A model generated the notes under the pieces. That model saw only the letters and a list, made by a program, of their open reading frames with translations, was not told where the DNA came from and did not search any database. From NCBI GenBank assembly GCA_964106645.2, contig OZ067043.1: a stretch of DNA of 64,000 bases; one strand, 5' to 3'. The position numbers and the translations under genes were made by a program. The DNA comes from Podarcis pityusensis (Eukaryota). Positions 4,741-60,096 of this stretch are shown one piece after another; positions within the stretch are counted from its first letter, which is position 1, and each line of letters begins with the position of its first letter.

Positions 4741-4982
4741 CAGTGGTACCTCGAGTTACAGACGCTTCAGGTTACATACGCTTCAGGTTACAGAATCCAC
4801 TAACCCAGAAATAGTACCTCGGGTTAAGAACTTTGCTTCAGGATGAGAACAGAAATCGCACGGCGGCGGCACGGCAGCAGTGGGAGGCCCCATTAGCTAA
4901 AGTGGTACCTCAGGTTAAGAACAGTTTCAGGTTAAGAATGGACCTCCAGAACGAATTAAGTTCTTAACCCGAGGTACCACTG
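4741..4982. mobile_element. Tc1/mariner (Tigger-like) MITE
   Basis: TIRs CAGTGGTACCTCG...CGAGGTACCACTG with TA on both sides (4739-4740, 4983-4984). Second copy at 44515. Confidence 0.93.
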
Positions 4983-5296
4983 TATTTTAAAAAATCATTA
5001 TGTTTTAATTGTACACTCATGTTTCAGTAAAAAAGCAATATCAGATTATGATTTTTTTAACGATGAAATTCCAGCTGCCTGGGAAAGACCCACATAGCAA
5101 GACATGTAAATACAGTGGCATCAGGAAATGCAAGCAAACAATACAGGGCATCAGTGGTAGTTTGTCATTCTATGCTGGACAGGTTGGTGCTGCAACTGAA
5201 ACTGCATTCAAAGTCAGAAAATCACCACAAATCAGGTGTTTCAAAATCAACATGTAAAACATTAGAATTGTAACAGGTGGCCAGTGATACTGTCTG

Positions 5297-5650
5297 AGGG
5301 CTTATCCACACTTAATTTTTGTCCCACTCTTTCCAGACACAGGTCCATGCTTTAAAGCTCTGTGTCTGAGTGTGGGGTGTTGTTGGTTTTTGCCCCAGAG
5401 CTTTCACCGCGAAAATGTGCTCTTTAGCAGTCAATTGGAGCAAACGTCAGTTCGAATTTTCTGTGGATTGCCATTTGCTCCAATTAAGCATTAAAGAACA
5501 GATTTTTTTTGCGGGGAAAGCTCTGGAGCAAAAAGAAAGAAAAAGAAAGAGTGTTTCTTGAGTTCTGTGTAATAACCATGGGCTGGGGGTGCACATTACT
5601 ACTTACTTTGGCTCCAGTGTGCTCCCACCACTGGTGGTTCAAGGTGAGTG
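5297..5650. mobile_element. PIF/Harbinger-like MITE, left arm and interior
   Basis: Begins agggcttatccacactt. Internal inverted repeat aattggagcaaa/tttgctccaatt. Interior gagttctgtgtaataac...gtgtgctcccaccactggtg is shared with the complete copy at 60097. Confidence 0.75.
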
Positions 5651-6684
5651 CACATGACATTAGCCACAACCCATCTGCATCTTGTAGTTTCTTGAGAAAT
5701 ACTGCTGACGAAATTCCCTCAGACTGGGTTCCATCCGATTCAAAAACGTAAGTCACATTTAAGCTAAAGTTTGTACGTTGTAGACATTTTAGATGATGGC
5801 ACGTTTTAATAGGAATTAATAGGAGCTGCAGGCATGGGGAAACAAATCCGGTAATAACTTACAGTGTGTACAACACCACAGAATGTGACTTGACAAGGGG
5901 AAATGATCTCCCTTCATTTTAAGCCGCTAATTTGTACATGCCTTTAGTCTTGGACCAGGGAGAAGTGTGGTTAGAGCTTTACTCAGCCAGGCAATTTATG
6001 TGGCAGTGTTAGGGAAATCACTTTGGAAGCGACAGTCCAGGAAAGCAGTTGAAGAAGACAGCGTGGCTCCTTCATCCTTTGGCCATGCTGAACATTTTGT
6101 TTGGTGCATGTGCATGTACACACAAGTGGATACAGAAGATGAATGTTCTTAACAGAAGTGTGGGAAAGCAGAATGTGGGGCTCCAGCCCATTCTCCTCAT
6201 CTTACCCTTTTCTTGACTCTTCCACTTTCCTTGCTTTATCTCCTGCCACTTCCCCCATTCTACAACTGCTGCTTCCCCTCCCTGTGGTTCTTCGTGTATC
6301 AACAAGCTACTGCTCCTGGTGTAACAAGACCAGGCTAAATCTGCTTAGCCTTGCCCCATGTGTGCCAAAGTAACAACCACATCTTGCAGAGATGTCGGTA
6401 AACAATACCTTGCCTCTTCTCCCCATAGAAGAAATGGAGAGTGCCAGAGTGCGCCATGAATGACCATGAGCCATCTGGTCAGTGTCCTGTCCCCGATGAA
6501 CCACTTACTTAAAGCTTCATGGGGAGTATATGGGAAAGAAGTCTGTGATGCAAGTATCACCCTGCCATCAATCTTTCCCCAATGTTTTAGCATACATATG
6601 CATACTTTCCTAAGCTTAAGTCATAGAAGGTCAGTTCCCCCCACCCCGCTTTTATGGTTGTTGTAAAAATAATTAAATCAGGAA

Positions 6685-9578: not shown

Positions 9579-9953
9579 AAAGAAGGGAACAATATTTTTA
9601 TCCGTTCTGTGCATAACTTTACAAACCAGTTTCATGTCCCTTGTTACGGTAGTTGCATTTTCCTTGAACTATAGTAATGGGGTTCCTTTAGGCTTCCTGA
9701 TGTTGTTGGACTCCAGTGTTCAGGGATGATGGAAGCTGTAGTCCAGTAGCATCCAGAGGGCCACCAGTTCCCTGGGGTAACCAGAACTGTGCACAATATT
9801 TCATAAATTTATATAGTCATTATGATAGTGGCAGCCTTATTTTCAGCCACTTTCATTATCCTAGGATGAAATTTGCTGAATTTTGTTTCCTGCCCCACAC
9901 TGAGATGAGGATCCAGGTCAGGGACCCTATCATAATGGCTAGGCGGCATTAAC

Positions 9954-10959: not shown

Positions 10960-13459
10960 TGACACACCCCTACTCTCCTTTTTCCAGGGATAATGGCCCT
11001 ACACATTGCGGTGATTATGGTTTTCTGACAAGTAGACTTGGTCTGTTCATGCTGGCACATCCAATGGTGTGTCCAAGAGACAGAGGTGGGGTCTACCCAG
11101 CTGGCTCAGTATCCAATTCAGCTTCAGGTGCCTCCCCAGTTGCCAGGGAAATAGTGCTAATATGAGGCAGGGTAGGGGCCAGTTCAGACAGCTCTCCCTC
11201 CTCTACTGAGATATCTAGCACTACTACGTAGGTGCCAGCTCCCTGAGGCCCTGGCTGCCCAAGCCCCCGCCAATTTCAGCCCCAGGGCCATGCACGCTTA
11301 ATGACACCCACAGCCTTGGGCACTCATGGTTGCAGCACCAAGTTGGCACTCCTGATCTCCTGACAGGCTACTCAGCTGCTCCCCAGCACCAAGCTCAGCA
11401 CTCTCATCCAGATCCTCCTTCCCCTCTGAACAATCATGCCAAAGAGTCTCTACAGAGCTCAAGACAGTAATAAAATTGTATAGTTTCCACTTTGTGCATG
11501 TATGAAGCTTTGTCTGAAGCATCCAGTGGAAGTCAGTGAGAGAGTCAGATACTGAGTTCAGATGGCCCTTCATTGGAAATAGTCACACTTGTCCTAGCAC
11601 TGCTCTTGCAAGGACAGCACCCTCATCCCACTTTTAATGATAGGAAATGGTAACTGCATCTGTTCTAAGACTTGGTATATTGGTGAGCTGTCTGAATACT
11701 GTATGTAGATGCGTTTATTATCTGAATACCGTATCCTTTGCAGGGTCAAGATGAAATCTTCTCTTAGTGGAACAACACAGGCACAACTCTTTGTAGTCAA
11801 GCTCTCAAGACCACCAAAGGTTTCTTGGGACATGCTGTTGTTTGCTTATCTCCCTTTGATACCCTCAGGGTTTAGGTGGTCCTTATTTTTATGGCTAGCA
11901 CTTAACAATCTCCTGTTCACCTCCTGCTGATGAGACTTTCTCTCATGTCCATCTTGCTGGGACAATGTTTGAGGAGTTATTTATGTTAGCCAAGGAAGAA
12001 AGGCCCCTTGGGAGAATGGAATCTTGTGGCAGGAGGTGAGTCTGACACAACGTCTCTGAATGGGAATGCATGGTAAGAATTGGAAGAGGAAAAGGGAGGG
12101 CTGCCAAATTACAGTCTCACTTTATGTCTAGCTCTGTGTCCAAACTTCAGTTTAGACAGTGGCATGAGGAACTTAGGATATTTCCAGATCAACACACACA
12201 CACACACACATACACACACGCCTTACAGTGACAAGTGAAAACCATTCAGGTTTACACCATTTTAGCTGGTGTCAAAAGAGTTGTGAGACCTTCAGATCTT
12301 TTCAAACTGAACTTATAACATAAAGCTAAGGCTTCTGCTTGGTACTACTGGCCAAGAACATCTGTGAACATCAAGCTACTGAATCAGTGTGTCTACAAGG
12401 ATCAGGGGTGCAGGTGAGTCAACATGGCTTTTAGCTCGTTTTGCACCCTCTTTTAAGGACCAGCTCAGCAATTCAAAAATATCAGCTGTTGGACAGTCCA
12501 AACAACACTTGTTACTGTGGCGTTGATCTAATCCCCTATTTACAATCTGAAGTGGTACAATTCAGGAAAGATTGTACCATGTCAAATTTCCCCCAAAAAG
12601 TATTAGATTCCTATTTTTTAGTATCTGGGATGTAGGATATCCTTGCTTGGTTTCCAATGTCTTCTGTCCTTCAGGGATAAGTTTTACACTCATAGAATTG
12701 GATGATTGACTGTTGAGTGTCAACACCAACATTTAACATAGTTCGCCTCAAGTGAAAAGGAATGACATCAGCAGGTTTTAGAGGAAGTTGGAATCCTGAG
12801 GTAAAATCAACAGCATTGTGAAGGTTAGCATAAGGAATATGTTGACTTATTTTGGATTGCTACCTCTACCATTTCAGTATTCTGATCTCCATTCCATGTA
12901 AAACAATGGCAGGCTCCATGCTACACATGGGATGCGCTCTCCCAAAAGTTCCAGAGGTGCCTTTCTAAAGTCCCCTGCACAACCAAGTAATGAGTCTTTG
13001 TGAGACCTGGACACCCCAAAATTTCCAGTTGTGCACCAACACTGAGAAAGATGTGTGTGTTCAAAGCTCTGTGCTGGCCCTTTGCCCAGGAATATTCTCA
13101 GTTACCATTTCTGCCAAATGAATGTGCCACTTCAAAGAACCTGCCTAGACCCCCTGCCAATTAACAACAGAGCTGGGCTTTGTTAGCCACTAAAATAATA
13201 TTTCCCATCCTGCAGAGAGAAGCAAACCAACAGCTCGATCAGGGAACCAGACTCAGCCAGTGGAGAGAATGATGCAGAGGGCCTCATGTATTGGGAATCT
13301 ATGCAGGCAATCACAGCAAGCGGCTGTTGCCTGTTTTCACCACACTGAGGCTGAGCTGCAGTGTTATTCCAGTTTGCCAATGACACTTTCCAAAGCTCTT
13401 TATCCTCCCTTAGCTTTCCCCAGCCCCCACCCCACCCCCTTCCTGTTGTTCCTGTTCTC

Positions 13460-13929
13460 TCCAGTTATTGTCAATGCTGTAATAGAGCGATCAAAGTGCA
13501 ATAAGCTAAACATGACCCATTAGCGGCGTCACAGGCATTTTTTGATTTTTTTTAAAGAAAAAAATCAAAGGCATTTATGTTTGCTTATTATGCACTTTAA
13601 ACCCTGGCAATGTGATGTGATCAGAGAAGGAGAGAGAAATAAGAGAGATGCCCCCCCCACGCGCTCTGTCCCTCTGCCTGCCCTTCCCCCTCCCCTCATG
13701 TTGGTGCTCTCTGTGTTCATTAGTGGCCACAGCTGTGCAGCCGGCCAATTACTTGGAAATAATAAGTACATTTTGCAGTAAATTAAATATTAATTAGTGC
13801 TTGGCAGGTTGTTGTTTCTCCCCTTATTCCTGCACCACCCTCTGAAAAAAGAGGGGGAAAGAATCATTGGAGAAAAAAGCATAAATTGGCCTGTTTGTGC
13901 TGACATGTCAATAACAGGGTGACACAATA
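13460..13929. promoter_or_regulatory. Candidate conserved non-coding enhancer
   Basis: GATCAAAG, TAATTAG/TAAATTA cluster, TGACATGTCA, ACAATAG. Confidence 0.55.
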
Positions 13930-14460
13930 GAGAGGTGGTGTGGTGTAGTGGTTAGAATGTCATAGACTAGGACCTGGGAGACCAGGGTTCAAATCCCCAC
14001 TCAGCTATGAAGTTCAGTAGGTGACCTTGAGCCAGTCACTGTCTATCAGCCTAGCCCACCTCACAGGGTTGTTGTGAGGATAAAATGAGAGAATCCTGTA
14101 CACTGCCTGCAGCTACTTGGAGCCAGTGGTGGCTGGCCCCCATTGCAACTAGTAGGGCAGAAGGCATGGAGCTGCAAACAATGGGCAGATCCGGAGCCAG
14201 TGACAGACAGACAACTAATTCTAGCTCTGTCCCCTGCTAAGTTCTACAAGGAGAAGAACAGAGTCTCAGGAGGATGAGCCTGACATCAGTCGTCCCCCCA
14301 CCCTGCCACTGCCCCCACCGCCGCCTTGACTACTTCTAAGCAGGAAGGCAGGCAGGTTGGGCTGGCTGAGGGCAGACTCGGATTCTTGGGGCAGTGCCCC
14401 ATTGGCTCTAATGAACCAATCTCCACTGCTTGGAGGAAAAATGGGATACAAAAAATATGG
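13930..14460 (+). mobile_element. tRNA-derived MIR/CORE-like SINE split by a hAT insertion
   Basis: A box tggtgtagtggttag, B box gggttcaaatccc, core cacctcacagggttgttgtgaggataaaat. The tail (cttggaggaaaaatgggatacaaa) resumes after 14428. Confidence 0.85.
14124..14428. mobile_element. Non-autonomous hAT element nested in a SINE
   Basis: TIRs cagtggtggctgg / ccaatctccactg. 8-bp TSD cttggagc (14116-14123) / cttggagg (14429-14436). Confidence 0.85.
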
Positions 14461-15857
14461 GATCTACCCTGCTTTCAGTGCGTATATGTAGGAGCGGTCG
14501 GGGTCAGTAATGGGCCTCATCCCTTTGCTTGGTTGTGTCTAAGGCAGAGAACCGTGTTCCTCAACTCGAAACCCACAGACTTAATCAGCCTCACTGTTTC
14601 TTCTCTCCTGGCCATCATTGCTACTGAATCCTTCCCCATTACTGTCACTGGCCACTGGCATCCCAGTCCCACCACCTGCCATTTTTTTCCAGGGGCAGCA
14701 GAAGTGTTTGGGTAGGGCATCAGGAAGTGTAACTTTTCTTCCTATTATCTTGCAGTAGATGAGAGTCACTTTTTATTCCATTTTCTTTCCATTCCTTCTC
14801 TGCAGAGATTGTGATATGTTTTCATCTAGGACTGGCTGCATGGTTTCCGGTTTAATCTTTGCTTCAGTGAGCTTCTCCTTTAGCAAAATACTGATTTGGG
14901 ATGCAGTCCAGCCAGAGTTAAGCATTATAAGTTCCACTGATACAATGGGGAAATTAAGCATGTGCTTTACATGCTTTGATTGAAATCAGTGGGATTTAAG
15001 CTCTTTAAAAAAAAAAAAAGTTGACCAGTCTGTCTTCTTTAGTCTCTTCACTGATTAATTCATCTGCAATGGAAACGGTATGTTACAAAGAGGAAGGAAA
15101 TCCACAGACCATCCCCAACTCTTGATCTGTTTCTGTTCCCATTCAGCAAGTAAAAGTATCACTTTAGACAGAGTGGAAGAAGACTGGCTTTCTGTCACAA
15201 ACTACAAGTGCAAAGCTTGAATCATTTGTACCTTTGAGCAGCCTTTCTCAACTGGTGTAGTGGTTCAGTCTACACTCTATTAACAGATCCATGAATGGAA
15301 ATGAAATGGTGATTCAGGGGATGGCTGTTCCAATTAAAACCCAGGAAGGCATTTTTACAAATATGTACCTAGTTTCACAATAACCAAGCTGGGTTCATGT
15401 TATGCCTTGCTTATGTTCAGGTGCCAGTGAAAGCACAGCTGGCCAGTGTGAGGTTTCGAATTTTCAGTGTGTATCTTTTGTACTGGCTATCATTTATTTG
15501 TGTTTCATCTTGTGCAAGCTTCTCCTTCCCTGCTGAGAAGTGTGTAACGCCAGGGGCTCTTTGAAGACCTCTTCCTATAGGGGAGCCACCACCAGCATCC
15601 TCTTTAAACATCTGCCTTTTTGAAAACATAGCCTCCTTTGCTCCTAGCGTACCGTATATATGTGCGTGTGCTATTGCAGCCAATATTTTAATGTTTTTGT
15701 AGCATTTTTGCTCAAAAATACTAAATCACTAGTATTTATATATATGGGTGACCAGGAATTGTCGAATTAGATGCTGGCTTTTTAACAAACGTAATCTGTA
15801 TTGGCTCTTGCTTTATCAATGTCGCACACTTCTCACAGTCAGATACAATAAGATCAT

Positions 15858-15995
15858 CACATAGAACCACAGAATTGTAGAGTTGAAAGGGACCACGAGG
15901 ACCCTCTAGCCCAGTCACCTGCGATGCAGGAACCTTTTGCTCAATGTGGGGCTTGAACCCACAGCATTCGTTCTCTACTGATTGAGGTATCCCAG
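15858..15995 (-). mobile_element. tRNA-derived SINE with CR1-type 3' tail
   Basis: Minus strand reads ctgggatacctcaatcagtagag...gggttcaagccccac...ggtccctttcaactctacaattctgtggttctatg. Confidence 0.75.
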
Positions 15996-17340: not shown

Positions 17341-18559
17341 TGTGTTTTCAGTATGTGTGCTTTCCCCTCCCCCTTGTCTCACCAAGCTAGTGGGAGGAGG
17401 GAGGGCAATGCTGCGGGAAAGGAATGGAGAAGAAAGAGTGGAGGGCTCTGCCCCGTCACTGCTTCAAATTATAGGCATCTCAGTATATCACCAACCTAGC
17501 AAGTTGCCCTCTAAGTCAAGGACAAGTGCTGCCTACAAGGATGTCTTGTGGGAAAGAACTGGAGCTGCTGCCTTGTGCAAGATGGTTCCTGAGTGTCACA
17601 CCTACAATGAAATGGAACTAAATAATAATAATAATAAGTGGCTCCTATCTCACGATGTTCTTTGCATGAACTTTATGCAGGGAACACTGTGTTAGAACAT
17701 TTAATGCTACAAACATAAGGGTATATAGCCTTCCACAAGTCTATAAATATCCCCAGCTAAGGGAAAAATAGAAACTCTGGTGGAACTGGGAATCATTATA
17801 TTGGGGACTGGTTGGTGCTGCCCTCTGAAACACCCGGTTCTATTGGTATTAGAGATGGAGTGCAAACCAGGAAGGAATAGGGATTGTGTATATTCTGTAG
17901 TTGGAAAACTACAGAGCTGTAGGCTGTCACCCATTTGTGCCACATCCATTCTAGAAATAAGCATGTAGAATTGTAGCCACTACACAGGTTTTGGGTTTTT
18001 GTCTTGAGGTACCCTATGTGCCTCTCATCCTGTCTGGTGGTGGCATTGGGCTACAAAGCGATCTTGATTCTGTTTCTTCCAGATTGCTAGTCCATGTAGT
18101 CTTTATAATGCTTTCTCCTTTTCAGAGGATGTAGGCCATGTTGACCATTCATGAGCTTTTCATTCCTTACTTGTCAGATCTATATATTTTAGTTCAAAAG
18201 CCTGAAACGCACGTTTAGAACTAGAGGGAGCTAGTTACCGGTAGTTCCTCCAGTTGCTCCACTATTTTAGTTCCTCTAAAACAGTTAGAGATGGACTGTG
18301 CGTAGGATATTTTAGTTTCCACTTCTTTAAATAGTGTGAAAATTTCTGCCATCATTGACTAGAAAAACATGAGTCAGTAACTTTGGCCAATAGGTGTTTT
18401 TTTTAGATAGACCCCTGACCATGGAGATACTTGGAGTTTTAGCATGCCTTGTGTATACAGAATACTCAAGGGCCATTAGACTAGTAAGAGTGAGACCAAA
18501 TATATTTGTAAACCCTACATTTGAACACAATTTAAAGAGGAGATGAGTTTGCCTTTTCC

Positions 18560-19157: not shown

Positions 19158-20131
19158 CCAAGAGAAAGTAATTTCTGGCATAGTGTTTGAGGAGTCCTGT
19201 GCTACTATTGTACAACATACAATTAGCTCTTACAACACCTGTCTCTGCACCATAAGCCCTACCTAGTCAAACTATTCAAGTCAGGAGGGGTGGGTGGGGA
19301 GGTGCCCATCACAAGCAGAAGGCTACATTTAAATCCATGGCCATTGCATAGTCATGCATTTTTGCCTTCCTTTAACATTTGAGTTAGTGGTACTTTTAAG
19401 CTTATTTACATAATCAGTAGAGCCAGAGATTTGCAACAAATGTTCTATGCAAGCTGAGGAAGTGTAAATGCTAAAATAAAAGCATATGCTCATGAAGATA
19501 TTGGTCCCACACCAGCTGCTGCTGTTTCAGTGGCTTGATCCATCTGATTGTTGCCCACATCTGCGCTCCCCTCCTGTACTTGTCCCTGATCTCAGTTAGC
19601 TTCTGAGGACACAGGCAGAACTTACATATTTAACTGTCCCTCTTGCCAATACTCACATAAATCTTCTGAATAAGATGCTAGAAAAATCTTTGCTGCACCA
19701 GAGACCACACCCATGAACCTTCTAGCTTCGGCTCAACATCCAGCATCCACTGACAACAAAAGGTATGGATTGGCCTTACTACACATTTACCCTAAACATG
19801 AGAGTACAGAATCTGTGATTGGATCTCCTTTTTCTTTTAATTTAAATATATGCCCTTTCCTACACCAAAAGATGCTCAAAGTTTTGTACAAGTAAAGGAA
19901 AATATTTGGAGGAGGGGGAATTAAATTAAAACAAGTATGAACAATAAACATGAAGAAGAAAATAGCTTGTCCACATACATTTCTTTTAATGGGGCTAGAG
20001 GAAATTGTAATCAGAAAAACTGTGCTGGGGGGAAGGGTTAAGCCTATGGGTCCAATTCAGTATCCATCTCTTCCCACTGCAGCTTCTGTTTGCTAAAATT
20101 GAAAAAGGTGGGAGGTCTGATATACTTTGGC

Positions 20132-20390
20132 CGGGGTAGGAAACTTTTTTCAGCCCAATGACCACATTCCCTTCTGGGCAACCTCCTGAGGACCACATGG
20201 CAGCGGTGGGAGGGGCCAGGCAGCAAATGTAAATTTTGCCTTTGTACGGTAGCAGGAGGCATTATCAAAGTTCAATGATCCCTCCTAGCCAGGCAAAAAA
20301 CACTCCTGGTTCAAAGCAGGGCCAGTGAAGGGTGTGTCCTGGGAAGAGTTTTGTGGGTTAGATAGAGAGGCCTGAGTTTCTCCTCCTCTG
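20132..20390. mobile_element. hAT-like MITE (related copy at about 49718-50002)
   Basis: Ends cggggtaggaaac / gtttctcctcctctg. Interior accacattcccttctgggca is shared with 49719-49738. Confidence 0.7.
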
Positions 20391-20911
20391 ACTGAGACCC
20401 ATTGATAGTCTGTAGAGGCCACACTTAGGGATGGAAGACAGTTTCAAAAACAAGCACACACAAACAAACATACAGACTCTCACACACAAACACCCCCCTT
20501 CCCCAAAAAATATGTATATAATGCACTCACAAACTCTAAAGTGCATGGAGGAGGTCAAAGAATTGACTAACAGTTGAGCCTCGTGCTTCAAGAGCTCCTA
20601 AATCTCTGACATAAACACAAAGTGAATTATGTAAAATGGATTCTTTTAAGATTGCTCCAATCCATGTATACTGTTCTCTGATGCAGTTTGACACTGCTTA
20701 CTCTAAGAGACAGGATCTTGAAGAAGATAGACAAGTCATTTGATCAAATCTGGCAGTTGCTCTTTTCTTATGATCACTCCTTTGCCTAGTAGCAGAAAAC
20801 TTCTAACTTCATACAAAGGAACTGTAACAACTGTCTACTAAATCCTACAAGCTTAGTAATTCACATAGCAGCCAAGCAGAGCAAGGCCAATTGATTACCA
20901 GTGTTCTGGAG

Positions 20912-21051
20912 CAGCATTTCCCAACCCTGGATCCCCAGATGTTGTTGGGCTACAACTCCCATCATCCTTAGCCAGCAGTGCCAGTGGTCAGGGGTGATTA
21001 GAGTTGTAATCCAACAATATCTGGAGAGTCACAGGTCCCCCATCCCCACTG
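20912..21051. mobile_element. Palindromic hAT-like MITE
   Basis: ccagatgttgttgggctacaactcccatcatcc / ggtgattagagttgtaatccaacaatatctgg. Confidence 0.75.
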
Positions 21052-22139
21052 TAGAAGAATCCTCACCCAGTTCTTACACCCATAACCTCACCTAGTTCTC
21101 ATGGCAATTGATCATCATTATTACTCTGGATTCTCTTGCATTTGTCTTGCTGCAGTTTCTGTGAATCATCTAGTAGCCAGCTGTGCCAAAGACTGTGCTT
21201 ATGTACCCACCCCTTTGTCAGGGCAGAACCTATCTTACAAAAGCAAAACTCCATGTTACACCATCAGAAACAGTTCAGGCTGCTTAGGAAGGAAGCTGGT
21301 GTTTCATTTCATCTGTGGATGTATTTATCATTGTTCTTATTTTTGAGTACCTCTTGCAAAGTGATCATTAGCTTGAATAAAAAATAAGTGACTGGGCCAT
21401 GCATATAAAAGTTATGTGTGGTGATCCATTATGATTCAGTCAGGTGTTTGTTAGAAACTGAGTGTGAGACCAAGGATCAAAGCAGCTTCTAATGATTTAG
21501 AACTAAAGTCAAATTTTCTCATGAACAGGCTGCTCCCCAGCATGGAGAGAGTGGTCTGGTGGCTTCCTTTAAAGCTTCCCCCACCCCCTTTAATTATTGT
21601 TTTATTGAATAAGCTTATAACATCTTCCACAATATTAACATAAATGCACCAGTAACCTAGTAAAAAGAAAGTGAAGCCTGGAAAGGAGAGGGAACAGTTA
21701 AAGGAAATACAAAGAAAGTTATACATAGGAGGTCATCATATCATCAAGTGAAGCACCTATACAAGCCAGTCAATATGTAAATTTAGCATTATTCATATCC
21801 CTTGCCCCAGACACTAGGCAAAGGTCTCTATATATGCTGACCATATCTGCCTTCCTTTGAAGCTTGGGTTTCTTCAGATTGGCCATGGGAAATGACATAG
21901 AATGAGGTGACAAGTGTGGAAAGTTTAGTGTCAGTGAATCTAGGTATGTTACCAGTTTTCCATTCTTTCTCTGCTGGGATGAGGGCAACACTTTCCCTCC
22001 ATTGCTCATGGAGCTGGCTGCCCAGGTGGGCTTAGGGAATGAAGAGCTCAGGAAAGACAGGCTGGTGTGTGTGGCTCTTTCTTTCAGATCTCTGCCACGG
22101 TGTCTTCTTTCTTTCTTCCTTCTCATCGAGAATTCATTG

Positions 22140-22620
22140 TCTTGTCAGCCTCTAGTTAGCTGGCGTGCGTGCGAATCATAAATTACACAGCCTGGGCCTC
22201 TACTAGGCTTCAGCACAGACAAAAAAATTGCACTCCATCACTGTGTCGCCCAGCTTTTAGCGGTATTGATCAACGCAGCCCCCTCCCCCCCTTTCATTTT
22301 AACCGAGCTGGTTAAGTGCAGTATCTTATTTTGTGCTGGGACAAATGAAAAGAATATTAGCAGGGGTTGAAATATATCTCTTTTTTATCTCTCTGCTACT
22401 TTTTTATTGAATCTCTCTGAGTAGGTGGCTTTCCGCAGGATGACAGCCTCCTGACAGGCCCCTCATTAGAGACTAGACAGTAATTGTGATGCATTTCCCT
22501 GCACGGCCTTTTCACTTCTTTCCCCTTCCCCCCTTCCTCCTCTCTCCCTTTCTCCTGATTTGTAAAGTGATTGGATGTACAGACTCGCTCAGTTTCTTAA
22601 ATTATTGCCCAGCTCAATCC
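22140..22620. promoter_or_regulatory. Candidate conserved non-coding enhancer
   Basis: ATCATAAATTA, two TGACAG (22441, 22452), retained CpGs. Confidence 0.55.
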
Positions 22621-23291
22621 ATCTTCCTCTTGCTGAGGATGGGCAGCTGTGGGCTCAGAATCAGGAGCTGGAGACTCAGCTCCTTGTGGCAGAAACAGAG
22701 CGCTGACCACTCCTGGACATGGAATATTGGGCTGGAGGGGCCATGGAGTTGGCACTGTTCAGCAGAAGCACAGACCTCTGCTGTCTGAACTCCCTGGGTA
22801 CCATACCTGTGACTGTAATCCTGGCAAACTTGTGCTCTTCCTTATCTCTACATAAGTCTTAGTGAGTGTGGAACTAAGCTTTAAACTAGGGTGGAACTAA
22901 GCCTTCAGTTAAACTCCCCCTTCTCTCCAACCTCTAGTTCAACTCACCCTGTATCCTGACATCATTAAACGGTGTGATTCTCCACCACACTTGTGGCAAG
23001 ACACACAGTAAGTTGTACAGTACTAGGCATTGTCAAGGGGAACCTCCCATTTTCAGAAGTAGCGCTGTGTGTCTTGTAATGCTTAGATCCACCCTCCCTA
23101 AGGTCCTGACTATTTAAATGTTGTAGTAGATGCTTTCTCAGGATGTGAGGAAACAAAAGATGTGATTCCTAAAATGCTCCAAAGTAGTAGGCAGTTTTTC
23201 ACACACGGTTCAAATAAGCAGTTAAACAATGGCTAATCTTTCTGGAAATGTTTTTTTTTGGGGGGTGAGGGGGTCGTTCTGTTTGAGAATT

Positions 23292-23701
23292 TAGAAGCAT
23301 GGAAGTGTAGCGTTTGAAAGGAACCTGAGGGTCATTTAGTCCAACCCCCTGCAATGCAATAATCTTAGCTAAAGCATCCATGGCAGATGGCCAATGAACC
23401 TCTGCTTAAAAGCATCCAATAAAGAAGAGTACACCACCTTCCGAGGGAATTGGTTCCATTGTTGAACAGCTCTTACTGTCAGAGAATTCTTCCTCATGTT
23501 TAGTCAGAATTTCCTTTTTTGTAACTTGAAACCACTGCCTTGAGTCCCACCCTCAAGAGCAGGAGAAAACAAGCTTTCCCCATCTTCCATGTGACAGCCC
23601 TTTAGACACCTGAATATTGTTATCTCCTCTCACTCTCCTCTTATCCAGGCTAAGCATACCCAACTGTCTCAGCTGTTCCTCATAAAACTTGGTTATCATT
23701 T
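23292..23701 (-). mobile_element. CR1 LINE 3' fragment
   Basis: Reverse complement of the CR1 3' end: gtcatttagtccaaccccctgc, ttccattgttgaacagctcttactgtcag, ttcttcctcatgtttag. Confidence 0.87.
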
Positions 23702-24124
23702 TGTCAGGGACTGGCAGGGCTCCGAAGTGTGTGTGGTGGAGGCAGCGGTCAAGGGGAGTGACCCAGGAAAGGGGACCAGTGACATATGGGGTTTGACGCT
23801 GCCCACAAGGCAGGACGTGGGGGAGGAGGGAGAGTCAGGGCAGTCCAAGATGGAGGAAGGCACATGGAGGAAGAGACTGTTCAGAAGACAGACGGGTCAG
23901 TAGACTCCTCACCTTCCTCTGCCCCACTGTCTCCTCGAACAATGACAACTTCTGTGCAGGAGGCGTCTCAGTTTGTGGGTGCACAACCTGTCAGGAGAGG
24001 GTATATAAGCTGGCAGGGAGGAGGGGTCTCACTGTTGCTGCAACTGATCCACACGGTGTAGATTTGTGTGGGACAGTTGCTTAGTGGCTAGAGGTGTGTG
24101 TGCATCTGCATTTGAAGCACGACA
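23702..24124 (+). mobile_element. Probable solo LTR
   Basis: Starts TGTCA and ends CGACA; purine/GC-rich interior; TATA-like gtatataagctgg at 24001; abruptly truncates the CR1. No TSD was found. Confidence 0.5.
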
Positions 24125-26435
24125 AGAGTTGTTGTAAATCACAGTTACAGGAATTGGGTGGGTACCAGAATCCCATTTTTAAGATGTCATATTATGGGGG
24201 AAAGAGTAATGGGTCTTTAGTGAAATCCACAAGCCCCACTCCCTGATCCCACCAATTTTAGCCAAATCACAATGTGTTTCCCCTGCAGTCTTCTAAATCT
24301 GTAGCTAAGAAGGACATCACAAAAGTTAAGGGGGCTGGGCCCCGTCTCACCCACTGTAATCCAAGCAGTGGATTTTCTCATTGGCTTGTGCTGTCTAGGG
24401 ATAAGTTCTCTGCTGGTACTTTAATTATATGGTTGTGGTAAGCTGAAATCTGAGTGATACAGACTTAATGTATGGAAGATCCTGTTTTAGGGTTAGGGTT
24501 ACTGAGGTTACTGTTCAAGGCTTTTGTGTCCATTTCTCTCTTTGGATTTTATGATGTACTCAAGGCCAGGCAAGGTCAGTCAAACACTGTTTTTGCGTAT
24601 TCTGCATTTGCCCTTTTCCCGCTGACCCTTGTCTCCTGCCTTGCTTTTGGTAGTATTAACTGCCATTGCCCATATGAGGAAAAGAGGGGAAAGGGGCGGC
24701 ACTTAAAAGGCAGAAAAAACTAAAGTAAGACATTTGTTGAGGTGTGTACTTGTGTCCAGCGGGATGAACAAAAAAAACCCCGTGCCTAGAAAACATGAAA
24801 CAGAATAAAACATGGACCAAACAGAAGTGTGGATGTCCCCATAGTTGCCTAAATCTATTCTGAACTTCTAACAGAAAGCATGACCAGACTGTGATATAAG
24901 TTGTCTAGGGAAGTTACAGAAGCAACGTCACTTTTCTGTCTTAAGTTTCTTCAGGTTTCTGCCTTAGCCTTTGTGGTTCCTTCCCACTTGATACATCAGT
25001 ATGCAATGGTATTTAAGTGTACTATGCGATAACTAATTTGTTTTGACTAGCAATCTATCTTGCACAGCTTTACATCGGCTAAATTTGATCTCCCCCTGAG
25101 TCTGCATCCCTGTGCTCTTTTGGATGCATTATTTTGACACCTGAACAAATTCCTGTTAATTGTCATGTAATTATCATTCTCGGGAGACAGTGACTGCTGT
25201 GCACAAGAAGTTCAGTGTCCTCTTTGATGCCAAACAAGAAATTGCCAAAAGAAGAAGGTAGAAGAGAACTCAGAAGAAACTTGAGCTGCTATCAGTAGCC
25301 TGAACAATTCAGCTTGCCTTATAGGGACTGGATGTTTGGGCAAGTTTGTCAGATCCCTAGGAGAAAATGTCATTGAAGGGTCGGATCTGAATGCTTAGAA
25401 TAAAAACAAACAAGCAAACTGTATACGAGTGCCTCCTTACAGCCATGAGCCGGCAGTGTTTCTGGGTGCAGAAGCATCATTTGGTTGCTCCAAAGCTAAT
25501 GTGGACCCTCCTTAGAATGATTGTTTTCTGAGCTGGAGGGAGAGGCAGCTTGTCAGGGCAGATACCTGCTATCAGCCCAGGAATAACAGCAGGCCCATCA
25601 CCAAGGGAAGAATAATCCCCACAGAACCTTCAGGAGCTTGATTACAGACCCTGAGGCTGTGTCAGCATTTCTATTATGTTTCTGCCACTAGGCTTCTTCG
25701 TAGCCTGTCAGGCAACAGGTCTCTAGTATGGGGAGAGGGCTGCTCATTTATTCTGGGGCGTTTCAGAGTAAATGATTTGGGTAGATTTGTTAGGTCAGAC
25801 ACATGTTTATGAAATGTGAGAGAGCAAGAGTGAAATTGCTTTGCTTTGCTGTTTGGCTGGAAAGCAGCCTTTGTTGCTGAAAATTAAGGGTATGTTGTCA
25901 CAAAGCGTTGGCTATCAGATTGCTTCCATGCAAAGCACCTACGAATCTGTTTGCATCCTGGAGCATGTTGCCCTTATCCTGGGGCACTGTCTTTCAGGCT
26001 CTGTGTAAACATGGCAGATTACTGTGGTGTTGGGGAGCATCTCCACACCTACCATAACTCACAAATGCCCACAGAGGGGCAAACACAGTAAGAGTGTCTG
26101 CAGCACTGCTTCTTTGAGTTTGTGTAGAAGTGACAGGAAGTGGGGGGGGGGGGGGAGCAAGCTGTAAAATATTTGCACCTTAAAATTAGAGAAGCCAGGA
26201 CACTGTCAATGCAGTCATTCAGACCCAAGTGGTGTGATGAAATATTTGCCCTGATTTGCAATATAGATTCTCAGGTATTGCTTCAATAGGCAGCCGCAGC
26301 TCAATGTGCATTTGCTTGGCGTTGTTGTACATGTTTGTGAAGCCCCATCATGCACAACCACACTGGATAAAAAAAAAGTAGTGCAGCCAATGCCTTAGTT
26401 TGCATATAGGAATCCTTTCTTCTTCTTTTCCTTTG

Positions 26436-26915
26436 CTAAAAATATATTTTATTGATTTTCTGAGCTGAGTACTGAACATAAAAAGGATAAACAGTTATCT
26501 AGACAGAATACAGAGCTCAGTTAAAGAAGAAAATAAGTATCAGCTGAAATTTGTAGTCACTTATATTATAATATAGGCAGTCAAATAAAGGTGTTGCTCC
26601 ATAGTGTTCCATGTGATGATGGTGGAGGGAAACCATGCTCAAATGATTTTACAAAGTCAATGCAAGCATACCATATTGTATAGAAGGTGTTCACTTTCAC
26701 CCTGGTGTGACGTTCCTTTTGTAAAATGGTTAATTTTTCCATAAGGGTGATGTCCCATACTTCTGAGAACCAAGCTTCAAAAAGGTTTGTATCTAGAGTC
26801 TTCCAATATGTTGCTATCACTAATTTAGCTGCTGCTAATAACAGCAGAGTAAGATTGTTATTGGTTGTATCTTGGTTTTGTGAGGAATCCTCTTTATATA
26901 GATATTGGTTAGAAA
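26436..26915 (-). mobile_element. L1-clade LINE 3' fragment
   Basis: ORF 26581-26919 LLLLAAAKLVIATYWK...WFSEVWDITLMEKLT...FYTIW resembles an L1/Tx1 ORF2 C-terminus. Confidence 0.8.
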
Positions 26916-29149
26916 ACAACTACAACAAACCCCTTCCACCTCACAGCTATGCACTGTCTCTTATACAGCCATATTTTGTATTATTACGCCTTACCCGTTT
27001 AGCATGCATTATTATTTAAATGTCTAAAATTCCAAAAATACTCAGATGCATCCTATGTGTATTCAGAAAGCAGTCTGTACTGTATACACACAGTAAATTT
27101 TCAAAATGCTTATTCTACAGTTGTCCCACAAAAGTGGTGGTGACATCTCTGGAATGCTTCAGGAATAAACTCATTTTTTTATTCCAGTATGGGGCATTAC
27201 TACAAGTATCCCCTCCAGCCTTTTGTGAAGAGATGTTTTGTTGTTATGACATCTACACAATGTGCATGTACCTTAATTTGGCAGCAATTTTGGCTACATC
27301 TAACAGCAGAAAGGATGAAAAAGCCACTGGGGACAGGAAATTGTGCCGCTGCAGACCCATTGGCCCTGCAAATGTCTTCCTATAACCTGAGACAATTCTA
27401 GGCACATTCATACATGCAGAGGTTCCTCCTGGGTAAGTGATAAAGTTGCTCAGTTCTCAGTGATGCAACCACCATGCTTCCTTCTTCACAGGCTGCCAGC
27501 AGGTGTGTTCTTGTTGTCCGGACAGACCCACCTAAGGCTGTGATGTGTGAAGGGATTTCACAGAGCTGCTCTTGTGGTTTCTGTGTTGAAGTACCAACCC
27601 CCCTCTGCCCCGCTTTCAGGACAGGAAATATTCAGTTTCAAACACTTAGAACGAAGCATTTATTTGGAGCCCAGGGGAGTCTGCACACACAGGAGAGGGA
27701 CGTGGCTGGCCCTTTTCATCTTTGCAGTGTTAGCAAGCCAAGGGCTGCAGGGGAGAGAACAGCCGTGCCAAGGAGGGTAAACACTGGAGATGAACCCTGC
27801 TGAGTTACAAGGGGCCAAAGGGAAGGGAAGGACAGGCAGGGAGGCCAAGCAAACACAAACACAGCTGCCAAAAACAAAGCTTGAAAGGGGCCATTTGAAG
27901 CCTGCAGCCTTGGCTGAAATATGGGGGCGTGGGAGCTCCTGGCACAATGGCATACTCAGACTTGGCACAGACCGGGCAGTGTGGTTGGTTGCTTGGCACC
28001 ACACTCTCAGCTGCCTTCTTGTTTCCTTCAACAGGCGTAAGTTGGGAAGAAACAGAAAACTGTACCTGGTGGGTTCCGCGGGAGGTGCCTCTGTAAGGAG
28101 CAGATGTTATCTTGGGTGCTCGTTGACTCACAGTGCTAAAGTCACTCTGGCAACCCTCTGGATGAAATGATTTCAAGTGTACCCTTGAAATGGGTCCTTT
28201 TTCCTACAGTGAGTCTGCATTCTCTCCCTCCCAGTGTCACATAAATTAAGTGATCTGAAAAGTCCATTTCGATCTTAGGCCAGCAGAGGATGGGCACCCA
28301 TATGGGTTACTAATCTAGTAACTAGTTTTGTTTCAATGCCGCCCTCTGCTGGCGATCAGATGATCAGCATGCGGGACTGTAGTTTTTGGCAAAACCTTGG
28401 CTTCGTATTTTAATTTTTTTAAACAGCTGAGAATGTGGGGGGGGGGGTTTCTTACAAGCAATTTAAAATCATATTTTTTCTGCCAAAACAAGGAAAATAA
28501 TGAAGAAATTGCCACCAGAAAAAGATGGGACAGAAACCCCATTAAAGTTGAAGAGCATTGAGTTGATTGTCCTTTCGTGGCTCTGGGTCACATCTAGTGG
28601 TGATGGACAGAGAAGCAGCTCCAAGGAACATTTCATGCTCTTGCAGTGCTGTGGGAAGGGGACAGCGAGATCACCCTGCATGTTTACCCATCCAACCATG
28701 CAGACTGCAGCAGGGATCCAGCAGGATTTCCCGTTTGCTCAGAGGCTGCCTGTTTGTTTTAGGAGGGAGGTCTCAGACACCAGCATTGTTACATTAATGG
28801 GACTATAGTTATAAATAGCAGCCAGTGGGGGACCTTCTGGGGTTATTTTGGACTTTGACCACACAAAAGTGGAAAGGCTCCAAGAGGAAGCTGGGGTTGC
28901 TCACCCTCCCAGTCAATGTGAGAGGATTGTTTAGGTCTGGCTATTATTGAAAAGCAGCAGCACTTTGTGTGTGATGGAGCAACAGTGAGCACTGCAAAAC
29001 AGGCCAGTTGTTCTCCTTCTGATCCATAGCAGGGCTTACAGCAGGGGTGATGGTAGAAAGGACCAGCAATCTGTCTCTGTTCTGGAAGATGAGTTTAACA
29101 ATGGCTGAATAAGAATAATCTGAATAATTTGCTGGCATGAACTGCAGCA

Positions 29150-29362
29150 TAGTTATTACATTTATGCCCCCTCCAAGGAGCTCAAGGTGGCATACATGGT
29201 TCTTCTCCCTCCCTATTTTATCCTCACAACAACCATGTGGGGTAGGCTAGACTAAGAGTGAGTGACTGGCCCAAGGTCATCCAGTGAGCTTCATGGCTGA
29301 GTGGCCACTTGAAGCCTGGTCTCCCAGGTCTTAGTCCATCCCTTTAACCACTACACCACCCT
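29150..29362 (-). mobile_element. MIR/CORE-like tRNA SINE
   Basis: Reverse complement of the 13930 family: tttatcctcacaacaacc, gtgactggcccaaggtcatccagtgagcttcatggc, taaccactacaccac. Confidence 0.85.
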
Positions 29363-29929
29363 GTTTGTTTGCTTATGTACATATTCAGTCTAAAGTGAGT
29401 GTCACTGGACAAATCAAGATGGCATGTAGCTGGGATGTCTTATGGGCAATGCACTTTTTAGCATGTCAGTATGCAAAATTAAAAACAACATATTGAGTTC
29501 CTTGAAAAGGAGAGGGGAAGAGGCAGAGGAACCAGGGGCCTACAAAAAAGACCTGGGACTCAGGTTCTTTGGGCTACCTCATAACAGCACTCCTTCACTC
29601 CATCCTGATATAAGACTTCTACTACTATCCTCCACCCCCCTGAACTCTGATAATTCAAACACCGTTTGCAGCTTTAGTTATAAAAGGGAATGATGGTGTG
29701 GTAGTTTACAGCAGGGGGAGAAGAAGCCTTGAGTAAGGTGCCCTCAGTTCAATGCCCTCAACATGTATAGAGAGAAATAAAACCCTAATTCCCATAAAGG
29801 GTTCTGTGGTGCACTTAGTGAGTGTATTATATAGTGAGGACATTGCTGGTGAAAGACATCTCCCCTGAAGCATGGCCTTGTGCATAATTTGAAGGCAAGG
29901 ATGAGTCAAGGTTATTTCCAAACTTATTT

Positions 29930-30370
29930 CAGTCCTGTTAAAGCGCCTCCCCCCTACACCTGTTTATGTAGCCCCGGCAAAGTGCTTGTGCCAACATTTT
30001 CTCCTTTGGGAGGTCTATTCCTTTCAAGGGGATTCATTTAACTGGGCTGTGCTTTTTGCTTGGGGCCATAAAATGGCACCTTTTGGCTTTTGATTGGAAG
30101 GCCATATTGCACGCAGCCTGCTTTATGGCGCATTACTGCCTCTCGCGCGGATTTAACCAATTTGATCCATGTCTAATACATAAATAAATAATCCAGCAGG
30201 AACGCTTCACATTAGATGACAATAGGAAACTATAAAGCATGCTTCCCTTCACGGCAGCCATCAGATCTGGGTGTGCTACGCCCTCTGACGACCAGAGCAG
30301 CTATCACAGCTATGGAGCTCGTGCTTGCAGCCCAGCAACTGTCTAATAATGTCTTTGGTCACTTAGTTGT
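29930..30370. promoter_or_regulatory. Candidate conserved non-coding enhancer
   Basis: GCCATAAA and TTTATGGC, ACAATAG, CpG cluster tcgcgcgg. Confidence 0.55.
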
Positions 30371-43810: not shown

Positions 43811-44514
43811 TCCTCTGTTGTTGCACCTCTTCAGTACTGGGACATTGAAGCTTGGCCTAACTTTGTGGCTGAGATTCTGAATGTGACTGATCTTGAACTA
43901 GGCCTCAGAACACAAAAGTTCAAGCTCCACCACATTCTCCCTGTATGACATTAAGTGAATCTGGCAACTCATCTGGGCCTCTGTTCCCCATGTGTATAGA
44001 AAGGTTAATAGAGGTTGTAATTTTAAATTTGTCAGTGATTGTGAGGCCACTTGGACATTTAGTTGTTGAAGGGTGCACCATATGATGAGCAGGTAAGCTA
44101 ACAAAGCGAACCCAGGTGCCCTGGTGAAGGGCAGAGTAGGGAGAAACATGGGCAGCAGAATAGATTGGGCAACTAAGCTCATGGAAAATGTCTATAAGTT
44201 TTTTCCCCTGCAAGCAAAATTCAACTGTAGGCCAATCCTTTTGGTGGATTAAAGCTACCAGCTGGAGGATAATTATTCCCCCATTACAGCTACAGTAACA
44301 AAGATCAGTCTCCACATTCCCTTCCCCCCGGCTTGTATCTTGTCTTTATTTGTCAGACTGGCTTTATGTTTTCCCCCTCCTGTCGTTTTCTTTTCTGGGA
44401 AGAGTTAAGGAGCTGAATTTGTTGGGTTTCAACCCATAAGAAAAGGCAAAACAAAGCGGAAACCAAAATATAGCCATTTGGTTAAAAGAAAACACACACC
44501 CATGTTTCCCTTTA

Positions 44515-44734
44515 CAGTGGTACCTCGGGTTACAGACGCTTCAGGTTACAGACTCTGCTAACCCAGAAATAGTACCTCGGTTTAAGAAATTTACCTCAGG
44601 ATGAGAACAGAAATCGTGCGGCGGCAGCAGGAAGCCCCATTAGCTAAAGTGGTACCTCAGGTTAAGAACAGTTTCAGGTTAAGAACGGACCTCCAGAACA
44701 AATTACCGTAAGTTCTTAACCTGAGGTACCACTG
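44515..44734. mobile_element. Tc1/mariner (Tigger-like) MITE, second copy
   Basis: TA|CAGTGGTACCTCGGGTT...AACCTGAGGTACCACTG|TA; collinear with 4741-4982. Confidence 0.93.
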
Positions 44735-45559
44735 TACTTTATCACTGAGTTGATCTTATGGTGCAAGTGATTGCTTCATGGATTCTTATCCTGAAGCTGC
44801 TGTGTACAAATTGGAGATTACTGGCTATCGTGAGCTTGTGCAAGTGTTATTTTGTGTGGGGTTCCCCCACTGATAAATATAGTGCAGGCTAATGGTCACT
44901 GGTCATCCTGATTTACAGGTTCTTGGTTAGGGTTGTAACAAGAGGGCAAGAGATCACTATGGCCTGATTTTAGTGTGGGCAAGTCAATTGCTTGTATTGG
45001 AGTTTGGCTGCTTCAGCAGATGTACCATTTCTACCCTGCTGCTGATTTGGGGAAGTGCCAAGATGAGTCTCTTGGGGCTAGCATTTGCTTAGCATTGAGT
45101 GCCAAGCTTTTTAAAGTCTACCCCATTCCCTGCAGCACTACCCTCCCATTTTGTGAGGGTAGATTTGTTTTCTGCTTAGTTCTTTGATGGTCAGGTGGTT
45201 GCTCTCTCCAACACAACTGTGCTATTACTATAGTAATTCTACTATTACTATTATTTTTTATCAAAATTTCTATACTACCCTTCATCTGAAGATCACTGGG
45301 TGGTTTACAGTATAAAAGCACAAAAATGCATAACATTATACAGTAACAAACAAAAGCAATAACCCCTCCCCATAGACTTTTTCACTGTAACAGAATTGCC
45401 TGTGCTCCAATGTGTGGACTGCTATTGTCTCTGAATGGTAGAATTAGTGCAAGGATAGAAGTGTGGTTGGGACATTCATTTACATACTGTTATAACAAGC
45501 CCTCAGGAATCTTTATTCTACACTTTCTAGGCAGAAATCCCAAATAGCTGTTTGCTGTG

Positions 45560-58750: not shown

Positions 58751-60096
58751 TGTTTTCTTGGCCGTGGGATGCTCCCAGATCATAGGTGTCCCTCGGCTTG
58801 TGCTTGCTTCCACCCATGTCCCTGGGGTCAGCATGGCACACTCACATGTTTATGTAAGCACATACATGTATGCATCTGACATGCATGGGCACTTCTTATA
58901 CACATACACACAGAGTGAGCAGTCATTCACCTAGCCCAGGCATGGCCAGGCTTGCAGAGACTGGTTCGTTTTTTTACCAGCACTTTGAGCTCCTGCAACC
59001 AGTACCAGAGACAAAAGGATGGCTCCAGGGAAGAAACCAGTTACCTATCTCCACTGCCCCACACCTACCCTGGCCACTTTAGTCTTGCATATCCAAGTAC
59101 AAATATCTGAACTCTGCAGTAACTCTGGAACCCTAGCACCTCAGTTTAAGGTTTCTGCTATTGCTGATGTTAAATAACTGAGAGGCAGAACCTCCTGCTG
59201 ATCTGCTATGTGATCTGGCTATCTACCAGTAGATTCTGATCTACCTTCTAACATGCAGATGATAAAACAATTTCAAAACACTCACACCTGCATGAGTTTT
59301 TCTTGCCTGTGCGCATGAACACATAGGCACTCTCACAATCATTTGGAGATATATTCAAGAGCACCAAGATCTATCCTGTATGTGGACCTATACCTCATTT
59401 ACACTACCCAAGTTTTTGGGATGGGTGAGTAGAGGTAAGGAGGGATTTTCTTGCTCTCTTGTCTCCCACAACAGGTACCAGTGGCAGAGTAGATAAAGGG
59501 AAGGGGAACTGGTAAGCAGCCATTGTCATTGTCCTCCTCTTCCTTCATTTGAAAGAGTCTCAACCCCACCTCTCCCTTCCTCTTTTACCTGTGGCTCCCA
59601 AAGTGGCCCAGTCCTATATCTTTTTCCTTGCTGAAGAGGTGCTGTAACCTCTTGAAAGAGATTACAGATATCCCTGTTTGCAATGAGGATGTCTCATGCT
59701 GTCCCCTTCCATTCAGGCTTAGTGATCTATTGACTCCCTCCCCATTTCCAGCTCCCCTGCAAGAGGGGCCTCCCCACCCCCATCAGCAAGCATTTTGAAT
59801 CAGGTTGCGTTCGCTCGAGAGTGACATTTTCACAATCACAGTTGCAACATCCTATAAGGGCTTATTGGTTTCAGTAACCTGATAGCAGTTTATCCAGTGT
59901 TATTGTCAAACAAATTATTACAGAACATCTAGTCAAACAAATTACTTATGGCTTGCAGAGAAAGAAACCTTGGAGGTACCGTAACTGTTTCTCTGCCTTT
60001 CTAACTGGTTGAGGTGGTTACTTTGTTAACAGGAGTATTTACGTACTCTGACTTTTCTGGGTAGGAGCACCACACAGCACAAAACCAAAAGACTCA

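Follow-up and report, generated by a model that had tools for sequence, protein, structure and literature searches.

A most likely Passer-type excision scar in a MITE of Podarcis pityusensis and a genome-wide count of comparable scars

The window, a stretch of 64,000 nucleotides from Podarcis pityusensis (GCA_964106645.2, contig OZ067043.1), corresponds to G000:C6:51150001-51214000 of the 1.5-Gb assembly. Two copies of one MITE were present in the window, and their coordinates are listed in Table 1 together with those of the scar words. Positions 44696-44720 in one copy read GAACAAAT-TA-CCG-TA-AGTTCTTAAC, and the scar was located at G000:C6:51194704. The corresponding stretch of the other copy, with its start at 4949, read GAACGAAT-TA-AGTTCTTAAC and had a single TA. 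When the two copies were aligned, one clean 5-base gap was obtained. The initial annotation had stated that the copies differ by CCGTA, and this difference was recovered in the alignment, although the stretch in the empty copy starts at 4949 and not at 4950 as had been given. The duplicated TA that brackets the inserted letters, also described there, was seen directly in the same alignment.

The host element has CAG-starting terminal inverted repeats (TIRs), a TA duplication and no coding capacity. Its description as a MITE was retained, whereas its assignment to mariner proper was not; we take the host to be pogo/Tigger-like. A candidate autonomous partner of the host, a 582-aa open frame with a DDE_1 domain in an element with putative boundaries, was found at another locus (L155), which had a CAGTGGTACCTC start and a 73-bp match of 85% to the MITE end.

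Table 1. Positions of the scar words and of the host MITE copies in the window
Feature	Position	Strand	Details
TA-CCG-TA, most likely an excision scar	44704..44710	+	Duplicated TA and three terminal bases of a most likely Passer-type element; A at -3, T at +3
Host MITE, presumably pogo/Tigger-like, non-autonomous	44515..44734	+	Length 220 bp; TIRs CAGTGGTACCTC; family with 59,087 or more matches to the site
Left TA target duplication of the host MITE	44513..44514	+	
Right TA target duplication of the host MITE	44735..44736	+	
Second host MITE copy, empty site (TA at 4957-4958)	4741..4982	+	242 bp; TA-flanked; CAGTGGTACCTC terminal repeats
TA-CCGG-TA, likely four-letter scar in non-MITE DNA	18236..18243	.	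A at -3, T at +3
TA-CCG-TA, likely three-letter scar outside the MITE	59977..59983	+	A at -3, T at +3

The words TACCGTA and TACGGTA occurred 6 times in the window (0.68 expected), and a count of 6 was reached in 0 of 100 shuffles. Seven scar-like words were present in total; three had both target flanks, two had one and two had none. The words at 9645-9651, 11727-11733, 15650-15656 and 20245-20251 are TACCGTA or TACGGTA with one or no target flank and are no more than possible scars. The stretch was contained in the runs of five organisms, and the contigs from four runs ended inside the MITE, at 44711-44714 and 44533-44534; neither a filled nor an empty allele of the window locus was encountered in them. 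The depth of C and G at 44707 was near 1:1 in four runs, which carries no weight as support because it would equally arise from the ends of filled copies.

Across the paralogous copies of the MITE, the same TA was found empty, filled by an element with duplication of the TA, and scarred. The empty site gave 59,087 pattern matches genome-wide (control, 136), and the form TA-NNN-TA gave 149 (control, 8). The left half-site of the MITE followed by the start of a CCG element was matched 384 times (control, 15). Thirty loci were retrieved from these left-junction matches, 20 of which were MITE copies with a CCGTATTTTT element beginning at the TA. The far end of the element, TACGG followed by TA, was present in 16 of these 20 hosts; the elements were 169 to 996 bp in size and lay in both orientations. 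Moreover, the MITE-specific right junction of a TA-flanked CCGTA...TACGG element was matched 231 times (control, 1), and the filled sites come in several element size classes. The inserted letters had been proposed to be the terminal bases of a TA-targeting element, and a CCGTA...TACGG element indeed fills the same TA in the paralogues. CAG-starting elements followed the same left half-site in 105 cases (control, 9), some rows of which were non-MITE hosts.

The spectrum of the inserts was read by eye. Among the 100 three-letter inserts listed from the 149 matches, CCG was found 32 times, CGG 28, CTG 8, CAG 8, CCA 5, TGG 5, TCG 2 and CCT 2, and the other 10 were singles, 5 of them unrelated; CCG, CGG or their CpG-decay forms accounted for 86 of the 100. 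A tighter pattern for inserts of 4-14 letters gave 79 matches (control, 0). TA-CCGG-TA or a derivative was found in 60 of them (48 CCGG and 12 CCGG-derived), and 3 were complex. The remaining 16 were short tandem duplications of host sequence that terminated at the MITE-site TA and are possibly products of break repair. The inserts of 0-2 letters numbered 31 (control, 0), namely CG 14, CC 4, GG 4, TG 2, C 2, G 2, CT 1, AG 1 and none 1. The recurrent scar letters (C, G, CC, GG, CG, CCG, CGG and CCGG) are pieces of both element ends, and CCG, CGG and CCGG were the three commonest classes.

A second TA lies five bases on (AAG-TA-CTT, in the GTAC sub-lineage), and 85 scars with the same spectrum were found there (control, 0). 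By length, 29 were four-letter, 47 three-letter, 7 two-letter and 1 one-letter scars, and 1 was a bare duplication. The three-letter classes at this TA were uneven, with 16 CCG-class and 31 CGG-class scars in the 85 rows, and the CG scars, frequent among the short inserts at the first TA, numbered 0 at the second. Summed over three sets, the ratio of CCG to CGG was 64:65, one set alone being lopsided.

A CCG-ended family that targets TA had been postulated for this genome, and such a family was found: exact resident CCG ends numbered 26,592 genome-wide, 21,476 of which had A at -3, and members of it filled the MITE at the same TA in the 20 loci described above. The TIRs begin with CCGTA and are short, with 19-24 of 24 terminal bases matching in the 27 elements with both ends. 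These 27 elements are non-autonomous derivatives of 165-996 bp. According to its ends, target and footprint size, the departing element was most likely Passer-type. The Tc2/pogo-like source suggested at first was thereby kept as a CCGTA-ended pogo element and narrowed to this type. Passer (PS) is a DD35D pogo family, and its rows in Supplementary Table S1 give CCGTA/CCGTA ends and a TA target-site duplication in Podarcis muralis, Lacerta agilis and L. viridis (PMC9976928). Its target consensus is AAGTACTT, and footprints of 0-4 bp were obtained in human cells (PMC9976928). The resident ends had the same AAGTACTT preference, with A at -3 and T at +3, and the scar sizes of 0-4 bp at the MITE TAs fit the Passer footprint range. 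Hence, the family described here shares with Passer the CCGTA ends, TIRs of less than 30 bp, TA duplication, the type of target and the size of the footprints (PMC9976928). The terminal and subterminal start in the Podarcis muralis Passer row also resembles the ends of the filling elements by eye (PMC9976928). In contrast to Passer, the elements found here are non-autonomous derivatives, to which no DD35D transposase was linked among the searches run. The passages of PMC9976928 that bear on footprints are without a census of natural ones, whereas natural scars were counted here.

No intact Passer transposase was located in the assembly by domain, DNA and protein searches. The Pfam DDE_1 search gave 150 matches, and no CCGTA-bounded transposase was present among the 30 loci retrieved. 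The DDE_1 matches were rejected as the autonomous partner, as they belonged mainly to a young CAGTGGTGCC-ended 3-kb family and not to the CCG family. This CAGTGGTGCC-ended pogo family of about 3 kb was seen at L157-L180 and further loci, with many uninterrupted frames of 575-576 aa, and its copies were 90-97% identical to L166. A search with the Brinker domain (BrkDBD) yielded two weak matches; one was a decayed Passer-like frame that showed no CCGTA ends in the region inspected. When an 87-aa decayed frame was used as a protein query, four matches were obtained, none with similarity to the CCG elements or with CCGTA ends. In a DNA search with the 996-bp element, 40 of the 4,468 candidates were scored, and only non-autonomous relatives of up to about 1.5 kb were found among these 40. 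The decayed Passer-like frames at L181 (G000:C15:41075693-41078833), L196 and L197 contained stops and frameshifts, had no CCGTA ends in view and probably represent an older lineage. Furthermore, no second family starting with TA-CCGT(C/G/T) was evident in 30 contexts of a 400-kb sample. The 259-bp class of elements was 92-97% identical pairwise, and the median end branch of the host was 0.048; Passer would therefore have been active after the spread of the host.

The extra CCGTA is very probably an end-joined scar: a Passer-type element (pogo, with CCGTA ends) would have inserted in the TA, duplicated it and later been excised, likely in the germline. The earlier reading of CCGTA as the trace of an insertion followed by an excision was supported by the empty, filled and scarred paralogues and by the Passer-like ends. 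The germline origin is suggested because the scars are assembled sequence that carries CpG decay. The window scar itself is most likely a real Passer-type excision scar, and an ordinary one on its own. Both the excision mechanism and the Passer family are already known. In Tc1/mariner elements, the transposase cleaves the non-transferred strand a few bases into the element and leaves 3' overhangs, and Sleeping Beauty excision, with 3' overhangs and NHEJ, gives the footprints TACAGTA and TACTGTA (PMC6943129). The scars described here share with that system a TA duplicated on both sides of the first or last bases of the element, the two strand outcomes and, presumably, the NHEJ of 3' overhangs (PMC6943129). 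They differ in that the termini are CCG, that the palindromic four-letter class, CCGG, roughly equals either three-letter class in frequency, and that the scars are natural, inherited and present in thousands, whereas those of Sleeping Beauty were made in assays (PMC6943129).

In the proposed mechanism, a Passer-type element would insert at a TA and duplicate it, and would later be cut out, likely in the germline, with the break end-joined. The transposase would leave a 3-nt 3' overhang, 5'-CCG, on each side. A full three-base overlap would form two base pairs around a central C:C mismatch and give CCG or CGG equally. Pairing via the self-complementary terminal CG, with a one-base fill-in on each side, would give CCGG, and trimming would give the short forms. 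This pairing of CCG overhangs, read from the CCG, CGG and CCGG registers, appears to be a fairly likely step.

A 2-nt stagger is used by Tc1 and Tc3, and the scar spectrum also fits a 2-nt stagger with trimming. Under such cleavage, CC overhangs would give products of the form C(0-2)+G(0-2): CCGG would have both ends kept, the shorter forms would be trimmed, and all the classes observed can be written in this way. No CCGCGG, CCGGG or CCCGG was present among the 79 longer inserts, but longer products would not be expected from CCG overhangs either, as no pairs form in the corresponding registers. In a variant, the three- and four-letter scars would stem from two Passer waves that differed in stagger, and the greater CpG decay in three-letter than in four-letter scars could reflect different ages of the waves. 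However, CC overhangs form no base pair in any register, whereas CCG overhangs make two Watson-Crick pairs in exactly two registers, and these correspond to the two commonest classes. Excision with a 2-nt stagger, or in two such waves, is thus considered unlikely, although it deserves to be taken seriously.

The three-letter scars could also be written without any transposase. The element begins with CCGTA and ends with TACGG, and a microhomology deletion that joined the TA of the TIR (positions 4-5) to the far target TA would produce TA-CCG-TA or TA-CGG-TA. However, CCGG, CG, CC, GG, C and G, about 4 in 10 of the scars at the MITE site, are impossible from TA joins, and the inner-TA join TA-CCGTACGG-TA and longer TIR remnants were absent among the 79 longer inserts. 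The non-TA products and the missing TA-CCGTACGG-TA largely refute such a deletion, which is very improbable. The same 79 inserts contained no products of aborted templated repair, i.e., TA-CCGTACGG-TA or longer TIR stubs.

Descent was evaluated with trees of the host copies, from which the insert was excluded; the loci had passed the anchors, and short or broken copies were excluded. If CCGTA had arisen once in a master MITE copy and spread by amplification as a subfamily trait, the copies that carry it should form one lineage. Some observations point in this direction: 25 of the 30 first-listed loci with AAYTACCGTAAGTWC were the same MITE with the same insert, and the CCG labels showed slight clustering on the tree, a value as low being reached in 12 of 500 label shuffles. 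Moreover, the pair L017/L018 (G000:C2:119835877 and 119836173) is a local tandem duplicate, in which the scarred MITE and its flank are repeated 296 bp apart. However, CGG and CCGG were about equally common at the same TA, and the scars occurred on both states of two diagnostic host sites (GTTC/GTAC and GTACCT/GTGCTT). An excess of the same words with the flanks of the target site was also found in unique DNA. In a tree of 47 rows, the 14 CCG copies required 8 changes, at least 4 of them forced by starred branches, and a branch that set these copies apart from all other rows was present in 0 of 200 bootstrap trees. In the AU test with 69 rows, a single clade for the 20 CCG-class copies was rejected (p=8.09e-05). 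As CCG and CGG are equally common and one clade is rejected, CCGTA is not a subfamily consensus. Its absence from the MITE consensus, which had been anticipated, also agrees with the 59,087 empty matches and with CCG, CGG and CCGG on several sub-lineage backgrounds. The product mix, the backgrounds, the bootstrap trees and the AU test refute subfamily descent as a class, the probability of which is slight; these sequence comparisons indicate that the scars at the MITE site arose many times independently. The window copy alone may descend from a scarred parent. Any lone small insertion could be random, but a chance 5-bp insertion or an assembly error at the window site has a negligible probability and was ruled out by the insert spectrum, in which 86 of the 100 listed three-letter inserts were CCG, CGG or CpG-decay forms, and by the filled copies, the ends of which match the inserted letters.

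The word TACCGGTA was found at 8,441 places in the genome and the control word TAGCGCTA at 6,600, with Markov expectations (orders 2-4) of about 3,600-4,300 and 5,100-5,800, respectively. This plain count is weak alone, and only the flank test separates the two words: A at -3 and T at +3 were present in 4,106 of the 8,441 TACCGGTA places and in 253 of the 6,600 TAGCGCTA places. The three-letter scar word with target flanks and no T next, a condition that excludes resident ends, was found 7,668 times (control, 1,023). In a 400-kb sample, 11 of 19 TACCGTA words were element ends, and the 8 solo words against about 6 expected mean that this sample by itself does not show scars.

With the flank preference taken from the residents, the two sides assumed independent and the background taken from one control word each, 6,000-6,150 CCGG scars and 13,800-15,900 intact-core CCG/CGG scars were estimated. 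Residents were put at about 15,000 in a calculation by hand, in which 26,592/2 was divided by 0.85-0.9 to allow for the longer pattern. From these pattern counts, intact-core scars would number about 20,000 and residents about 15,000, an estimated 1-1.5 scars per resident and 1.7-2 insertions per scar; excisions that were precise or that left a large deletion escape the patterns. If scars with CpG decay and the short forms are included, the total may reach, roughly, 25,000-30,000. For one arbitrary identical left flank, 53 resident ends were found against 59 CpG-intact scars among 83 rows (CCG 23, CGG 22 and CCGG 14), the other 24 rows being non-CpG or other words. At the MITE site, after hand correction for pattern length, there were about 300 scars and about 270 filled copies. 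At about one scar per resident, approximately every second fixed insertion would therefore have been excised later and end-joined, and the resident copy number would show only about half of the family history.

CpG decay was counted by eye in each class. Among the matches listed, 16 of 100 resident ends were decayed. The four-letter scars included 12 decayed (two decay types) and 68 intact ones, and the three-letter scars 19 CCA/TGG (one decay type per class) and 84 intact ones; the three-letter scars look older or more mutated than the four-letter scars. The ratio of CTG plus CAG to CCA plus TGG was 29:19, an excess over the CpG-decay expectation that was slight and not significant (p=0.19). 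Per resident, three-letter scars may be far scarcer for CAG-ended families than for Passer.

The positions along the chromosomes were compared in two sets. In the complete listings of C1-C3, 47 of 66 filled MITE sites lay in the outer 20% at either end, compared with 24 of the 55 scars (p=0.003 in the Fisher test and p=0.005 in the rank test); the filled rows were picked by their first letters, 20 of them were confirmed as MITE hosts, and the idea arose from this set. In an independent flank set on C1-C17, in which two resident rows on C18 and C20 were excluded as these had no lengths, 51 residents and 59 scars gave p=0.026 in the rank test, and the outer zone held 25 of 51 and 23 of 59, respectively (Fisher p=0.34). 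Residents were nearer the chromosome ends than scars, with moderate support. The scars look uniform along the chromosomes and the residents end-biased. More templated restoration near the chromosome ends would give this bias, as would a later end-biased insertion wave.

The rates of germline excision and the repair of donor sites in vertebrates are usually inferred from cell assays or models. Excisions can be counted here from one genome because the Passer scars are stereotyped, contain the rare CpG and keep the target-site flanks. The window scar is one among tens of thousands, which together make the rate of excision and germline repair measurable. Tentatively, with appreciable doubt, 20,000-30,000 Passer excisions in the germline, or about one for each element that survives, may constitute a dated and mappable fossil record. 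From such a record, the excision-to-insertion ratio, the 3-nt pogo stagger (from the CCG, CGG and CCGG registers) and the choice between end joining and templated restoration would be measurable; that choice would vary along chromosomes, with fewer scars per resident near the ends, and between families, the CAG-ended ones leaving few scars at the same site. Insertions of 5-6 bp at TA would make up a sizeable class of indels in these lizards, and the presence or absence of such MITEs would be a homoplastic phylogenetic marker. Passer is already in use as a gene-transfer tool, and the scar spectrum yields a testable prediction for its cleavage chemistry.

A literature search, with most subscription papers outside it, found no vertebrate census of natural excision scars. 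In a census of rice DNA transposons, the insertion-to-excision ratio was expected to be between 1:1 and 2:1, and 2.6-2.8:1 was observed for Mariner (Roffler and Wicker, 2015; PMC4423477). The estimate obtained here, about 1.7-2:1, is within the expected range (PMC4423477). The excisions in rice, read from the alignment of two species, were messy, with 8 of 94 perfect, deletions of 18 bp on average and 13-bp fillers (PMC4423477). The scars described here, in contrast, follow a stereotyped form and can be read from a single vertebrate genome; larger deletions would escape the patterns used.

Two MITE copies carried more than one scar. A stacked TA-CG-TA-CCG-TA was found at L147 (G000:C3:47839120-47839148), which likely represents two hits on one site. 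In the copy at L051 (G000:C2:58138384-58141403), two scars were present at about 1505 and 1639, separated by about 130 bp; this arrangement points to local hopping or to repeated targeting.
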